Positions 38,982-44,486 of a stretch of DNA of 64,000 bases are shown here, piece by piece (the stretch's first letter is position 1; each line of letters begins with the position of its first letter). Both the position numbers and the translations under genes were made by a program. The DNA is from a virus. The notes beneath the pieces are model-generated. The model ran no database searches and was not told the origin of the DNA. It worked only from the letters and a program-made list of their open reading frames with translations. The stretch is from positions 16,058 through 80,057 of IMG/VR virus record IMGVR_UViG_3300001041_000017; one strand, 5' to 3'.

Positions 38982-39998
38982 ATGAACAGACTTAAATCTT
39001 TCAAACATAATATCAGTATCGAAAAGATACTTGATAGTCTTAATATGGAATACAAACGCCGGGGAAAAGAACTCCTGGCGTTTTGTCCTAATGAGGAACA
39101 TATAGAAACTGCCCCATCATGGTCTATAAATGCAGAACCAAACAGTAAGAGGTTCGGAATACATTATTGTTTCGGCTGCGGATACCGGGGCAGCGTTATT
39201 TCGTTAGTTAAAAAATATAGAAACTGCAACGATGTAAAAGCTGTAAAATTCATAAAAGCTATCTGCGGAATAAGCGGAACAGTAGATGAAGATTATCTAC
39301 TGGAACAATCATTAAATGATAAATCAGACGATAAGAAAAAAATACTTTATAAGAGAATAAAAATAGCTTTGCCGGATGAATTTAAAAAACTAACTTCTAA
39401 GAGTGAAAAATATTTTACATATGCAACACAGAGAGGATTGACAGAAGAATCAATTAAAAAATTTAAAGTAGGATTTTGTCATACGGGATATTATTGGAAC
39501 CGTTTAATAATGCCAATATATTTCCAAGGTAATCTTTATTCATTTTTAGCAAGGAATAATGATCACAGAAGAAGATGTAAAAAAGACAAAAGAGTATTGT
39601 ATGTTCCAGGTCCCAAAATGAGCTTTATAGTTTGGCCTTATGACGATCTAGATTTTGATTTAGATTATGTGATTATCGTTGAAGGTCTATTTGATGCTAT
39701 TAAAATATTATCCTGGGATTATGAAAATGTCATAACTGTTTTCGGCAACAAAATCTCAGAAGAACAAGAGGAATTAATAAGACCATTCAAAAATATCTAT
39801 CTGGTCCCGGATGGGGATGAAGGTGGAGAAATACTAAAAGATTACTCCAAAGGATTAGTTTACGATCATAATGTATTTGTTATAGAACTTCCGGAAAATC
39901 AAGATCCGGGATCAATCTCAGAAGATGTTTTTGAAAAATGTTTTAATAACAAGAAAAATTTATTTAGCCAGAAGGTTAGAGTTAAAATAAAATATTAG
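38982..39998 (+). CDS. dnaG: DNA primase (CHC2 zinc finger + TOPRIM)
   Basis: CP...H.ETAPS, CFGCG, IVEG.FD, D.D.GG and DP motifs. Confidence 0.9.
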   Translation: MNRLKSFKHNISIEKILDSLNMEYKRRGKELLAFCPNEEHIETAPSWSINAEPNSKRFGIHYCFGCGYRGSVISLVKKYRNCNDVKAVKFIKAICGISGTVDEDYLLEQSLNDKSDDKKKILYKRIKIALPDEFKKLTSKSEKYFTYATQRGLTEESIKKFKVGFCHTGYYWNRLIMPIYFQGNLYSFLARNNDHRRRCKKDKRVLYVPGPKMSFIVWPYDDLDFDLDYVIIVEGLFDAIKILSWDYENVITVFGNKISEEQEELIRPFKNIYLVPDGDEGGEILKDYSKGLVYDHNVFVIELPENQDPGSISEDVFEKCFNNKKNLFSQKVRVKIKY

Positions 39999-40010
39999 GA
40001 TTGGTGAAAT

Positions 40011-40112
40011 ATGAATAGAGAAGATATTCTTAGAATATTTTATAGAGAGTTAATTAAACGAACAAAAAATTCTTCAGCCAAGAAGATTAAGAAAAAGAGA
40101 GTTAAGTTTTAA
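40011..40112 (+). CDS. 33-aa basic peptide (not in the ORF track)
   Basis: GGTGA RBS then MNREDILRIFYRELIKRTKNSSAKKIKKKRVKF; terminator hairpin at 40096-40133. Confidence 0.5.
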   Translation: MNREDILRIFYRELIKRTKNSSAKKIKKKRVKF

Positions 40113-40155
40113 ATAACTTGACTCTCTTTTTTTATTGTGATAATATCAAAATATC

Positions 40156-41775
40156 TTGATATTATTTACATTAGGGGGAATTTATTTGAAAGAAAATCAT
40201 ATACCTCCTCATTTGAGAATGGCAAATTATAAAGAGCAAAAAAGAAATTCTGACAAAGAATCAGACAAGAGTTTAATTAAGCTTCAGGGATATGTCAGGA
40301 TTTCTACAAAAAAAGAAGCTCAAAAAACATCTCTAGAATTTCAGGAAAAGCTATTAAAAGAATGGTGTGAAGTTCATGGATATCAATATGCTGGAACGGT
40401 TTTTGATATAAAATCTGGGGCATATATGAATTCAAGGACCGGTATTCAAGATCTTTTAGAGATGGCTAAGAATGAAGAAATTCACGGATTAATAACCAAG
40501 GAGGTTTCAAGAACCTCCAGAGATATTCAAGACATAATTCAGTTAAAAAGAAAACTCTCTGATTATGGAGCCTTCTTAATTTCAATAAAGGAGGGTTACG
40601 ACAGTAGATCGGATAACGATGAATTTTTGTTAACTATTTATGCAGCAATAGCCCAGAAAGAAAGAACCACTATTGGGAGTAGGTTGAAGACTACGCAACT
40701 AATAAAGGCCAGGAATGGTAGACCGAATAATAGGCCAGCTTTCGGATACCGAATATCAGAAGATAAAACCAGATATGAACCCTGCCCAATACATACTCCA
40801 ATCTATAAAGAGATAGTAGATATGTTTCTGTCTGGGAAGGGTAAGAATGCTATTTGTAGAGAGTTGAATGGAAGAGGGTTAAAAACATACCTTGGATCTA
40901 AATTCTCCTCTCTAACGATAGATACAATCCTTAGAAACCCGGTCTACATCGGAACGTATATGTATAACACTTCATATTGTTTCCGTGATGCAGAGGGTAA
41001 AAAACAGAGGGTTATTAGACCTCAGAACGAATGGATAGTCAGAGAAAATAATCACGAATCCTTAATAGAAAACTTAACCTGGGAATCTATACAAGAGTCA
41101 TTGGATAAGCGTAAAATAGATAAGAAATATACTGTTGATAAAAAATATTTACTAACCGGTAATTTAATTTGTTCAAGATGCGGATCTAAAATTTATGGAA
41201 AGATTCATTCTAGAACTAGGAAAGATGGATCGCGTCCTGTTTATTATTTATGTTATAATGAGTTCGGAAACTGTCATTTACCGTATACCAGAAAAGAAAT
41301 AATTGAGGATATGGTAAAAGAACATTTAACAAAAATAATTTACGATCCGGAAATTCTGAGAGATGAAATAAATAATCAGAAAAATATTATGGACGTAAAT
41401 AATTCAGATCTTGTCCAAAGAAGAGAAATTATTCAGAAGGAATTATCCGATATCGAAAAAGCTATGAATAAACAATTTGTGGCCTACGAAAAGGATATAA
41501 TTGATGTAGATACTTATGGTAAAAGAATTAAAGAATTAAAACAAAACAAACTAATTTTAGAGGAAGAATTATCTGTCCTGGAGAAGAAGTTAAGGAAAAC
41601 TGATCGGATGGATAATAAGACAGAAATACTTTTCAGAGAAATAAAACAACTGTTGGATTTAGAAAAAAATCCTGATGTTGCTGAATTAGCCCTAGGTTTA
41701 TTTGTAGATAAGATATATGTAGACTATAAGAAAGACAAATTAATTTTGAAGTATAAATATACTTTTCAAGAGTGA
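40156..41775 (+). CDS. Large serine recombinase (integrase); start probably TTG 40186
   Basis: YVRIST catalytic motif, SR.SR, recombinase domain, Zn ribbon (CSRCG...YYLC...C) and coiled coil. Confidence 0.95.
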   Translation: MILFTLGGIYLKENHIPPHLRMANYKEQKRNSDKESDKSLIKLQGYVRISTKKEAQKTSLEFQEKLLKEWCEVHGYQYAGTVFDIKSGAYMNSRTGIQDLLEMAKNEEIHGLITKEVSRTSRDIQDIIQLKRKLSDYGAFLISIKEGYDSRSDNDEFLLTIYAAIAQKERTTIGSRLKTTQLIKARNGRPNNRPAFGYRISEDKTRYEPCPIHTPIYKEIVDMFLSGKGKNAICRELNGRGLKTYLGSKFSSLTIDTILRNPVYIGTYMYNTSYCFRDAEGKKQRVIRPQNEWIVRENNHESLIENLTWESIQESLDKRKIDKKYTVDKKYLLTGNLICSRCGSKIYGKIHSRTRKDGSRPVYYLCYNEFGNCHLPYTRKEIIEDMVKEHLTKIIYDPEILRDEINNQKNIMDVNNSDLVQRREIIQKELSDIEKAMNKQFVAYEKDIIDVDTYGKRIKELKQNKLILEEELSVLEKKLRKTDRMDNKTEILFREIKQLLDLEKNPDVAELALGLFVDKIYVDYKKDKLILKYKYTFQE

Positions 41776-41782
41776 AATATAC

Positions 41783-41830
41783 TGTCCTAAATTGTAAGGG
41801 CGGGCAAAAGTACCTTTACAATTTAGGACA
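41783..41830. other. Putative attP site
   Basis: 15-bp perfect inverted arms (TGTCCTAAATTGTAA / TTACAATTTAGGACA) around an 18-bp core, 7 bp after the integrase stop. Confidence 0.7.
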
Positions 41831-41839
41831 ACAAAAACC

Positions 41840-42259
41840 CTAACAATGATTAATGTTAGGGTTTAATTTTTCCTGTAATTCTATTATGCTGTTGATGATT
41901 TTTTCGAGAGTGGAGACAGGGATTTTTTTATCATATGCTTTTTCGATTAAGAGAATATACGGAAGGAAATCCGTATGAGAAAGTATGTCTGGACTTAATT
42001 TATTATTGAGAATTCCTGATTCGTAAACATCATTTAAAGTAAAGTCGAACAAAAAATAAAACGGAGACACATTAAGTATTTCACTAAGAGTTGATATTAA
42101 TTCTTTAGAAATATTTTTACCTCTTTTATCTTTAGAAAGAACACTAATATAAGCTGCGGTCACATTTACCTTTTCTGCTAACTCCTTTTGTTTCAAACTC
42201 CTATTCTCCATAATTAATTTTAACTTTTCCCCAAATGTCAGAACATCAAATCTCTTCAT
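41840..42259 (-). CDS. XRE-family HTH repressor
   Basis: GEKLK...R.L.QKELAEKVNVT.AYIS HTH; GGAGGTG RBS; the only well-supported minus-strand gene. Confidence 0.9.
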   Translation of the reverse strand: MKRFDVLTFGEKLKLIMENRSLKQKELAEKVNVTAAYISVLSKDKRGKNISKELISTLSEILNVSPFYFLFDFTLNDVYESGILNNKLSPDILSHTDFLPYILLIEKAYDKKIPVSTLEKIINSIIELQEKLNPNINHC

Positions 42260-42348
42260 ATTATCACCTCCAAATTAAATGAATTATAGGCTATAAAACT
42301 TAAATTTGATTTATTGTTGTTATTGTACCCTAATATCAAAACAATTTC

Positions 42349-42364
42349 TGTGACCGTCGTCACA
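42349..42364. promoter_or_regulatory. CRP/FNR-type palindrome
   Basis: TGTGA-CCGTCG-TCACA. Confidence 0.55.
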
Positions 42365-42439
42365 TTTTTATATATTTTTTTAACTTTTTAATTATATAAC
42401 AAAAAGTTTATTCAAACAACAAAAATTCTCTTGTCTTTT

Positions 42440-42446
42440 TTCGACA
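42440..42446 (-). promoter_or_regulatory. Spo0A box
   Basis: TGTCGAA on the minus strand, in context TTTGTCGAAAAA. Confidence 0.5.
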
Positions 42447-42462
42447 AATTAACTGAATGTTG

Positions 42463-42491
42463 TTGACATTAAGGTTATTATGAAATATAAT
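42463..42491 (+). promoter_or_regulatory. Consensus sigma-A promoter for the sigma-like gene
   Basis: TTGACA-N17-TATAAT. Confidence 0.85.
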
Positions 42492-42600
42492 TCATGGAAA
42501 TAACATAAAGTTAATTGATCGGCATATCATAATATAAACCCTACATAAATAATAACGGTTAGTTAACAAAACCTTTATATTTAGAGAGGAGAGATATTTT

Positions 42601-43494
42601 GTGAAGAAGGGTCAATGCCAACAATGCCAAATATGTAGTTATTCCTGTGAGGACAAGGATTTACTTCTGAAACATCTAGAAGAATACCACGGATTAAGAG
42701 TAGGTTTTGTTTTAGAGAATGAGACAGGTGTTTTAGAGAACGAAATGTATCTAATAAGAGAAGGTCTCAGTAGTTCTATAGAGAAAGTTATAAGAAAGAT
42801 GAGACCTTACTTAATTAAGGCTGTAAACCAGAAGTATTCTAATTATCCCTCGAATCTTATGAATAAAGATGATTTTATCTCTATTGCAGAGATTTCTATT
42901 TGGGAGAGCTTGAATTGTCAGATAGAAAATCCAGAAATAAAGGATAAATGTTATAAATATATTTGTCCGGTATGTGGTAAAGCGTTTACTAGCATGATTA
43001 GATACGAAAAACATTTGCTGGTTAAGCATGGTAAACAAATCTCCCCTAAAGTATCTATTGGAGAATTTGTTAACTTCAGATTAGGGGTACGACTCCAAAA
43101 TGCCGTTAGAGATGAATACGCTCAAAAACGGCAAGGGAATCATTTTTATAGTCGGGACGATGAAATGTCCCAATCATTATATTTAGACTATGCTTCTGAG
43201 AGAGACGAAGATTCTGATTTTAAGGAACTTGACTCTGGTATAAACATAGAGGACGAAGTTTCTGAAAAGTTTTTGATTGAGGGAATAATCAAGAGACTTG
43301 GATCTTCTAATATAGATAAGGCAATTATAATTCAGCTATTTCGTGGTATAAAAGTAAGAAAAATTGCCACTAAAATATATAACGCTTATGGAGAGCATTC
43401 GTCTATTAAATCAGCTACTACAACCGTCAAAAATATGATAAAAGTTCTACTGGAGAACGGAAATGTATTTGAAGACGGTTTAAAAATATCATAA
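42601..43494 (+). CDS. Sigma-70-family (SigH-like) factor with two C2H2 zinc fingers
   Basis: Region-2-like 'DDFISIAEISIWESL...FVNFRL..RLQNAVR....QKR', region-4-like 'G..VRKIA' HTH and two C-x2-C-x12-H-x4-H motifs. Confidence 0.65.
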   Translation: MKKGQCQQCQICSYSCEDKDLLLKHLEEYHGLRVGFVLENETGVLENEMYLIREGLSSSIEKVIRKMRPYLIKAVNQKYSNYPSNLMNKDDFISIAEISIWESLNCQIENPEIKDKCYKYICPVCGKAFTSMIRYEKHLLVKHGKQISPKVSIGEFVNFRLGVRLQNAVRDEYAQKRQGNHFYSRDDEMSQSLYLDYASERDEDSDFKELDSGINIEDEVSEKFLIEGIIKRLGSSNIDKAIIIQLFRGIKVRKIATKIYNAYGEHSSIKSATTTVKNMIKVLLENGNVFEDGLKIS

Positions 43495-43499
43495 ATAAT

Positions 43500-43543
43500 T
43501 TAAGAAGAAACCTTTTACAATAAGAGGTTTCTTCTTAATTTTT
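43500..43543 (+). terminator. Terminator-like hairpin
   Basis: TTAAGAAGAAACC / GGTTTCTTCTTAA stem. Confidence 0.65.
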
Positions 43544-43649
43544 GATAAAATTATAAAAATTTTTCTACTAATCGTAAAAATAAAAAAGCAATTGATATAT
43601 TAAAGATAGAGGGTAATTAAACACAAAATACAAAAGGTAAAGGGAGGAA

Positions 43650-44486
43650 TTGTTTTTGGCTAAGAAAACAACTGAAAAAAAGGACGATAAGAAAACTTCC
43701 AAGACTAAATCCAAATTTAAACTGAAGGATTTACTAGCCGGGGCTGAAGCTCTTGAGCTTGATACAGATGATATCGAGGATGATGCAAAGGCTTTAGAAG
43801 CAGCCATTGATGATGCTGTTTCAGATTTAGACGAGGATGATACCTGTGAGTGTGGTGAGTGCGGTAAAGACATTCCTGACGTAGACACTTGCCCCTACTG
43901 CGGTAAAGTCTTCGAAACAGACGACTCCGATGAAGACGAAGAATCGGATGAAGATAACGACGAAGAAGAGGAAGAAGAACCTGCCACTATTAAGACTGTG
44001 GGCAAAGGCAAGAATAAAACCTTTAGCTGCTCTAAGTGCGGTAAGGCTGTAAAAGAGGATTCCAAGTCTTGCCCTAATAAGAAGTGTAAAGCTGTTTTTG
44101 AGACCGAAGAAGAGGATGAGGACGAGGAAGAAGAAACGTCCAAAAAGTCCTCTAAGAAGGATGATAAAAAAGCTGGCAAGGCTTCCGATAAAAAATCGGG
44201 CAAGGGTAAGAAAGATCCCGATCCGGAAGAAGAGGAAGATGAGGACGACGAAGAGGATGAAGAAGAAGTCGTCTATATAACTACTTCCGGTAAGGGTAAG
44301 AAGAAGAAATTTATCTGCTCAGGCTGCGGTGAAGAAGTAAAAGAAACCGCTAAAAAGTGCAAGGGTTGTAAGGCCGTATTTGGCGAAGAACCCGAAGAAG
44401 AGGAAGACGAGGAAGAAGAAACTCCTCCTCCGAAGAAGTCTTCCAAGAAGGACGATAAGAAGTCGTCCAAAAAGGGTAAGAAGTAA
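43650..44486 (+). CDS. Triple zinc-ribbon protein with D/E-rich and K-rich low-complexity tracts
   Basis: Three CxxCG...CxxC..VF units; followed by a terminator at 44532-44563. Confidence 0.75.
   Translation: MFLAKKTTEKKDDKKTSKTKSKFKLKDLLAGAEALELDTDDIEDDAKALEAAIDDAVSDLDEDDTCECGECGKDIPDVDTCPYCGKVFETDDSDEDEESDEDNDEEEEEEPATIKTVGKGKNKTFSCSKCGKAVKEDSKSCPNKKCKAVFETEEEDEDEEEETSKKSSKKDDKKAGKASDKKSGKGKKDPDPEEEEDEDDEEDEEEVVYITTSGKGKKKKFICSGCGEEVKETAKKCKGCKAVFGEEPEEEEDEEEETPPPKKSSKKDDKKSSKKGKK

Follow-up and report, generated by a model that had tools for sequence, protein, structure and literature searches.

Several elements that interrupt sporulation genes and leave them again in the course of development have been described. 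Phage SPbeta of Bacillus subtilis (134 kb) carries its own replication genes together with SprA/SprB and has spsM as its target (PMC4191935, PMC5499854). The skin elements of sigK, with SpoIVCA and the recombination directionality factors (RDFs) Skr and CD1234, are found in many lineages and are often reduced to a few kb (bioRxiv 10.1101/2022.02.25.481979; PMC5025042). The gin element in gerE of Bacillus cereus is of non-phage nature, encodes GirC and GirX, a serine recombinase with its small accessory factor, and restores the sporulation gene (PMC5595907). Reviews of elements splitting sporulation genes name sigK, spsM, spoVFB, spoVR, gerE and yabG; in the literature searched, a skin-like element interrupting cotJC is mentioned in one sentence, for Laceyella sacchari only (bioRxiv 10.1101/2022.02.25.481979). 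The locus compared with these systems here is a phage segment at positions 40011–43494 of a 64-kb window, the window being the whole stretch of DNA analysed (bases 16058–80057 of an 80-kb linear IMG/VR virus record). This segment is the integration and early-regulation (lysogeny) module of a temperate-type phage, and it is real and well organised. Its large serine integrase was found to group with recombinases of elements that split cotJC in spore-forming Bacillota. The integrase gene and the adjoining candidate for the phage attachment site (attP) are placed as follows, with lengths in amino acids (aa), nucleotides (nt) or base pairs (bp).

40186–41775, + strand: large serine integrase, 529 aa from a TTG start behind a GGGGGA ribosome-binding site
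41783–41830: attP candidate, a 48-bp imperfect inverted repeat starting 8 nt past the integrase stop

Alternative starts for the integrase lie at 40156 and at an ATG at 40219, with the TTG at 40186 judged to be the best; the length of 529 aa obtained from it agrees with public gene callers, and a cluster representative of 529 aa is 100% identical. The protein contains the Pfam domains Resolvase (PF00239, 4.7e-29), Recombinase (PF07508, 1.1e-24) and Zn_ribbon_recom (PF13408, 9.8e-10) and matches PHROG 95 (integrase) at 1.1e-97. Both DNA-binding domains of a large serine integrase are therefore present, the first being the Recombinase domain and the second the zinc ribbon. The catalytic serine S40 (numbered from the TTG at 40186) and R38 were invariant in an alignment of 33 sequences. 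With its three Pfam domains and invariant catalytic serine, the large serine recombinase named in the preliminary description of this DNA is thus a complete one.

A protein search with the integrase returned a tight group of homologues at 36–43% identity (E 1e-110 to 1e-77), followed by a gap down to 27–30%. No close relative was detected in 185,579 species genomes, IMG/VR or the deposited phages, and identity to any deposited phage was at most 28%. A profile scan of the genome collection identified 57 loci, nearly all of them in spore-forming Bacillota. The hosts include Desulfoscipio, Pelotomaculum, Heliobacterium, Heliorestis, Ruminiclostridium and Pseudobacteroides, as well as Acetivibrio, Moorellaceae, Syntrophomonadaceae and Thermacetogenium, so that the family spreads over the Clostridia, Desulfotomaculia, Heliobacteria, Moorellia and Syntrophomonadia. 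Fragments of cotJC flank the integrase in 47 of the 57 loci, with most of the remainder being short contigs. Both halves of cotJC are visible in approximately 20 loci, where the elements measure 3.2 to approximately 11 kb (for example L055:7955–11702, L053:1522–5436 and L034:6480–11729 in the series L003–L059). The preliminary description had expected a sporulation gene to be interrupted, and this part of it held for the relatives, but the gene split is cotJC and never spoIVA.

In most loci the integrase stop runs directly into the reverse complement of a short open reading frame (ORF), M-W-I-Y-E-K-K-L-E-Y-P-V...Q-Y-G-G-P, which is the start of cotJC and is followed by cotJB and cotJA (Pfam CotJB 8.7e-28, CotJA 3.8e-16). 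The other end of the element adjoins the rest of cotJC, of the Mn_catalase family, matching from profile position 30 on. The gene is thus split after about codon 31, at the codons for Q-Y-G-G-P. When the left and right junctions (attL and attR) of 11 loci were compared base by base, they were found to have the core GGC-GG-GCC-N-GAT in common, and joining of the two host sides restored Q-Y-G-G-P-D-G-E-L in frame. On the element side, the arms of these junctions make up a near-perfect palindrome (TATAAAAACATGAAATCC / GGATTTCATGTTTTTATA type) with GG at its centre. For 19 loci the distance from the integrase stop to the start of the core is 6–33 nt, with 10 of these falling within 20–24 nt. The relatives are therefore a family of cotJC-intervening elements, the counterpart of skin (sigK) and gin (gerE), with one recombinase clade positioned at identical codons of cotJC in dozens of species that range from Heliobacteria to Clostridia. 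The breadth of this clade appears to be undescribed, the literature searched having yielded the one-line note on one species.

A maximum-likelihood tree placed the window integrase and these relatives in an ingroup with 99% support (Shimodaira–Hasegawa-like approximate likelihood ratio test) against the next family, which is 27–30% identical. The window is the only phage genome found to carry a member of this group. The chromosomal members serve small elements of the skin or gin kind, which split cotJC at GGC-GG-GCC. The tree roughly tracks the host classes, which suggests long vertical inheritance. It was also observed that in some genomes the 3' piece of cotJC has decayed while intact paralogues are present. 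In Pseudobacteroides cellulosolvens the cotJC fragments lie approximately 40 kb apart, and three additional genes for large serine recombinases (L068:18198–19880, L069:778–3811) are present between them amid ordinary metabolic genes, along with transporters and a kinase; no phage genes were found among the ten largest ORFs of this stretch. The arrangement recalls the gin element with its several recombinases. Two further relatives (L024:2601–6827 and L048:9977–14574) are located downstream of ytfJ/scpB and have defence-like genes behind them, namely an AAA_15/AbiEii-type ATPase in one and a STAND protein with NB-ARC and TPR domains in the other.

The attP candidate of the window has arms of 18 nt (41783–41800 and 41813–41830) that are 94% complementary and separated by a 12-nt spacer; an imperfect inverted repeat of approximately 50 bp beside the gene is what is expected of a large serine integrase. 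The repeat contains GGCGGGC at 41799–41805, the sole copy on either strand of the 64 kb (0.27 expected). GGCGGGC-A begins 23 nt after the integrase stop and agrees with the GGCGGGCC core of the relatives at seven of eight positions, in the orientation also seen in L006 and L057, whose integrase is transcribed in the direction of the 3' portion of cotJC. As the heptamer is unique and lies at the offset typical of the family, its presence there by chance is very unlikely. Two independent metagenome contigs preserve the same site. In one metagenome variant that is 99% identical (L061), two single-nucleotide polymorphisms (SNPs) fall inside the 48 bp, at 41798 and 41805, with GGCGGG left intact, and one of the two renders the inverted arms perfectly complementary. 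Because the cotJC core of the relatives sits in the attP candidate at a matching offset after the integrase stop, the predicted bacterial attachment site (attB) of the phage is cotJC of a spore-forming Bacillota host, a prediction from sequence comparison that is held with modest confidence. The phage would then integrate into cotJC by way of the GGCGGGC core, with crossover predicted either at GG 41802–41803 by homology or at AA 41806–41807 by symmetry.

Between the primase gene and the integrase, the following features were identified.

40011–40112, + strand: micro-ORF of 33 aa directly after the primase gene, candidate RDF
40092–40131, + strand: terminator-like hairpin with 17-nt arms (94% complementary), a 6-nt loop and a following T run
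40118–40165, + strand: putative integrase promoter from a promoter scan, TTGACT-17-TAATAT with an upstream TG
40140–40165: perfect 10-6-10 palindrome ATAATATCAA-N6-TTGATATTAT, candidate operator, overlapping the putative −10 region of the integrase

At least 26 of the relatives have an ORF of 30–60 aa directly upstream of the integrase or overlapping its start. These small ORFs carry an amphipathic motif, (D/E)-[IV]-[LY]-x(5)-[LF]-[IV]-K (for example E-I-L-D-E-V-I-E-I-L-I-K-R-A), and the window micro-ORF carries D-I-L-R-I-F-Y-R-E-L-I-K-R-T at the equivalent relative position. A hidden Markov model built from the relatives with the window left out ranked the micro-ORF first among the 2298 six-frame ORFs of the window, with an E-value (0.34) that is not significant alone. 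A complex of the micro-ORF with the integrase, predicted with alignments for both chains, scored 0.70 against 0.04 for the best control; among solved complexes 58 of 80 reach this mark, as do 2 of 110 mismatched pairs, and the score may partly reflect likeness to a known structure because an integrase–RDF complex has already been solved. Two of three runs agreed, at least 23% of the contacts were common to the runs, and the partner had a predicted local distance difference test score (pLDDT) of 44–70. The predicted helix contacts integrase residues 384–398, 482–506 and 525–529, which immediately follow the zinc ribbon or mark the return of the coiled coil, with approximately 100 residues separating the two predicted interface stretches. 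The micro-ORF is thus predicted by modelling to bind the junction of the zinc domain and the coiled coil, which is where known RDFs bind (PMC12286644), and it is likely to be the RDF of the phage.

It should be noted that in the window a terminator and a promoter separate the micro-ORF from the integrase, whereas in the relatives the small ORF abuts or overlaps the integrase gene. The hairpin at 40092–40131 presumably ends the transcript of the replication genes and micro-ORF. The palindrome over the putative integrase promoter is single-copy in the window (0.03 expected). With this arrangement the micro-ORF would be made along with the lytic replication genes, bind the integrase junction and turn integration into excision; integrase alone would be present at establishment, and integrase with RDF during lytic growth.

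A number of observations weigh against cotJC as the target of this phage. The window integrase forms a long basal branch (length 1.0) and falls outside the cotJC clade, which has 97% support. Two other basal relatives, L024 and L048, occupy sites other than cotJC. In the window the repeat has its symmetry centre at AA 41806–41807, 4 nt to the right of the GG that is the centre in the relatives. Among the elements of the relatives, none resembles a phage. Moreover, no lysogen of the phage was found: scans of genomes, viral contigs and metagenomes gave only collinear free-phage contigs or nothing, exact scans of viral contigs with the attP half-sites gave no match, and a profile scan of viral contigs gave only a recombinase of 23% identity. 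A lysogen search of the kind proposed in the preliminary description thus yielded unintegrated copies only. Contigs from four groundwater or sediment runs show no joint or loose end at attP and those of three groundwater runs bridge it unbroken, at depths of 22–628, in a comparison that used assembled contigs, in which three of the runs may be the source sample and a minority integrated form may have gone unseen. As regards a link to sporulation, in the window neither CATAnnnTA nor CATACA is present upstream of the integrase gene or of the micro-ORF. Before the small ORF of the relatives, −10 motifs of the sigma-E/sigma-K type were found in 4 of 26 cases against 0.98 expected, a weak enrichment. 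Any coupling of the phage to sporulation would therefore be drawn by analogy with SPbeta and skin and is not a result of this analysis.

The likeliest of the alternatives is that attB is another host site, neither cotJC nor spoIVA, with GGCGGGC stemming from an ancestor common to the cotJC elements or kept by chance and with specificity having shifted in other basal members. This is regarded as possible though on the whole doubtful. It gains from the basal position and long branch of an integrase that is only approximately 40% identical to the cotJC-element recombinases, from the location of L024 and L048 beside ytfJ and defence-like genes, and from attP arms that are not recognisably like those of the relatives, with a symmetry centre shifted by 4 nt. 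It does not sit easily with a 7-nt core that occurs once in the window and keeps the distance from the stop codon typical of the family, nor with L024 and L048 themselves, which have no GGCGGGC core downstream of the integrase, nor with the order of putative micro-ORF, integrase and attP, which matches that of the cotJC elements.

The inverted repeat may also be read as a terminator or RNA structure only, the recombinase then serving multimer resolution or inversion with no chromosomal integration taking place here. The repeat does form a strong hairpin between convergent genes, as part of a fold of 41770–41880 with z = −7.0, and all phage copies observed are unintegrated and at high depth. 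However, a canonical terminator is already present 5 nt further on.

41835–41864, both strands: bidirectional intrinsic terminator from a terminator scan, between the convergent integrase and XRE genes

The repeat itself has a 12-nt loop and no T run behind it. In architecture the protein is a full integrase with a zinc ribbon, unlike small resolvases and invertases, and in the relatives the homologous position is a proven junction. This explanation is accordingly considered improbable.

The last of the alternatives is the one advanced in the preliminary description, namely that the phage integrates in spoIVA and that phosphorylated Spo0A (Spo0A~P), sensed at a 0A box, sets the time of its excision or lytic entry; the insertion would fall in the Walker-A codons, the AA of the lysine codon being the crossover. 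It concerns the attP candidate as well as the region between the XRE and sigma factor genes.

42260–42600: divergent control region with a palindrome, a TGTCGAA heptamer and a sigma-A-type promoter
42349–42364: palindrome TGTGACCGTCGTCACA, single-copy and not above chance (0.78 expected at two mismatches)
42440–42446, − strand: Spo0A-box heptamer TGTCGAA, one copy in the control region
42463–42491, + strand: sigma-A-type promoter TTGACA-17-TATAAT, 12/12 consensus

The inverted repeat, which is intergenic, does read V-R-A-G-K-S-T-F in one frame, seven of eight residues being identical to the VRTGKSTF of real SpoIVA genes; the symmetry centre AA lies in the lysine codon, and in that frame the two SNPs of the variant contig amount to an R>K and a synonymous glycine change. 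However, a SpoIVA-type P-loop was found within 10 kb of none of the 57 relatives, and in all five element-carrying genomes spoIVA is intact, with open frames of 436–497 aa. The P-loop DNA of spoIVA is identical to the attP 24-mer at 14–17 of 24 positions, which is the level arising from the common amino acids alone. It contains no GGCGGGC in the five genomes, the G+C-rich core being missing because SpoIVA has threonine (ACN) where the site reads alanine. A scan of 401 Clostridia genomes for the 24-mer, allowing up to three mismatches, gave no match. The spoIVA meaning of VRAGKSTF looks coincidental, the octapeptide probably being a by-product of GGC-GGG-CAA-AAG read in another frame and better explained by a cotJC-type core. 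The regulatory part fares similarly. The perfect TGTCGAA and the consensus promoter are both present, the heptamer lying approximately 17 nt upstream of the −35 region, but TGTCGAA occurs five times in the window against 5.05 expected, and a 12/12 consensus promoter would be expected to need no activator. A single heptamer at chance frequency beside a perfect-consensus promoter is no evidence for Spo0A control, and the proposed timing by Spo0A~P rested on it. For the developmental switch built on both parts, neither a lysogen nor a sign of developmental excision was obtained for this phage. Integration at spoIVA with Spo0A-timed excision is thus highly unlikely. The preliminary description is partly supported as a whole, being right in kind and wrong in specifics.

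The remaining genes of the module are placed as follows.

41840–42259, − strand: XRE-family helix-turn-helix repressor candidate, 139 aa (Pfam HTH_3 1.6e-07; PHROG transcriptional regulator/repressor families)
42601–43494, + strand: sigma-70-family factor of the phage, bearing two C2H2 fingers, the first N-terminal and the second inserted in sigma region 2

The XRE gene is present as first described, with no peptidase domain found by Pfam or PHROG, and its product may act as the repressor of the module. In order, the module comprises a micro-ORF closing the replication operon, an integrase with its own putative promoter, the attP candidate, a convergent XRE gene, the divergent region and the sigma factor gene, with the divergent region presumably driving the zinc-finger sigma factor.

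Searches of Pfam, PHROGs and the PDB with the single sigma sequence returned zinc fingers (zf-C2H2) only, and neither the ORF nor any of its homologues matched Sigma70_r2 or Sigma70_r4 at E ≤ 0.01. These homologues, ten proteins of 225–261 aa, came from an exhaustive HMMER search of 1.8 billion representatives. A profile of the family compared with the PDB matched SigH (3mzy, E 1.2e-5), SigF (1l0o, 0.0028) and the sigma subunit of the SigB holoenzyme (8x6g, 0.0077). The match to 3mzy spans regions 2.3–4.2 and region 2.2 aligns just before the finger, which places the second C2H2 finger between regions 2.2 and 2.3. An AlphaFold2 model based on the alignment had a pLDDT of 70, and one based on the single sequence, at 34, was useless. 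The alignment-based model matched almost exclusively sigma factors in structure (VIA-align Z 9.0–9.4, with 9.4 for SigB and 9.3 for SigH). Its sigma-2 domain alone superposed at a root-mean-square deviation of 2.4–2.9 Å over 76–96 residues, and a sigma-4 domain of the extracytoplasmic function type was matched at Z 6.0. Plain Foldseek gave no match at E ≤ 0.001, its E-values being weak (≥ 0.018). Family profile and fold thus bear out the earlier assignment of a SigH-like sigma factor with a C2H2 finger in region 2. The protein resembles the SigH-type and group 3/4 sigma-70 factors in having sigma-2 and sigma-4 domains by profile and fold, and differs from them in its inserted C2H2 finger, its extra N-terminal finger and the lack of a Pfam sigma match. 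The gene is followed by an intrinsic terminator (43500–43538, + strand) with an 18-pair stem and a T run. Directly after the sigma factor gene, a zinc-ribbon protein of 278 aa (43650–44486) was observed with three CxxC...CxxC units set apart by long Asp/Glu and Lys runs, for which Pfam gave zinc-ribbon matches only.

The module is flanked by replication genes, with a DnaB helicase and a DnaG-type primase upstream and a dUTPase and a PolIII-alpha-type polymerase downstream. As these lie on both sides of the site, the phage in this record is not integrated there. The window has a G+C content of 29–37% with nearly all genes on one strand, and no tRNA genes were found in it. The IMG/VR record has an estimated completeness of 67%, and contigs carrying an identical integrase (9+4+2 on record) extend up to 119,937 bp, from which the genome is roughly 120 kb; the source is groundwater. 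By its DNA polymerase the nearest cultured phage is Moorella phage MTATph1 at 31%, and no DNA match to deposited phages was obtained. Over window positions 39800–43800, contig depth was approximately 311 and 628 in two groundwater runs, and a third run contained a second strain diverged by approximately 1–2%. Such depths are consistent with active replication in the aquifer community.

A wider proposal, offered tentatively and as speculative, is that this free phage of 120 kb is a living relative of an old and widely inherited family that splits cotJC in at least five classes, integrating at Q-Y-G-G-P with a micro-RDF of approximately 30 aa and bearing a sigma factor with a eukaryote-style zinc finger in region 2. 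Its prophage would then make CotJC dependent on excision and constitute a second SPbeta-like switch, in anaerobic spore formers. If cotJC is indeed the target, the phage would offer a testable origin for the cotJC elements and a compact set of integrase, attP, attB and RDF for anaerobic Bacillota, in a system where excision gates coat assembly rather than a regulator.

Among the known systems, SPbeta is similar in being a large phage with replication genes, with a large serine integrase beside attP, a mother-cell sporulation gene as target (here predicted) and a small RDF (here a candidate) made with the lytic genes. No lysogen or sporulation-specific promoter was found here. The phage differs from SPbeta in its predicted target, which is cotJC and not spsM, in an RDF candidate of only 33 aa, and in being known here from free copies. 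The likeness to skin lies in the cotJC relatives, in which a serine recombinase borders an element splitting a sporulation gene; the target gene is a different one. The gin element is the best analogue of the small cotJC elements of 3–7 kb and of the multi-recombinase island of Pseudobacteroides; unlike gin, the window represents a true phage genome and not a reduced element.

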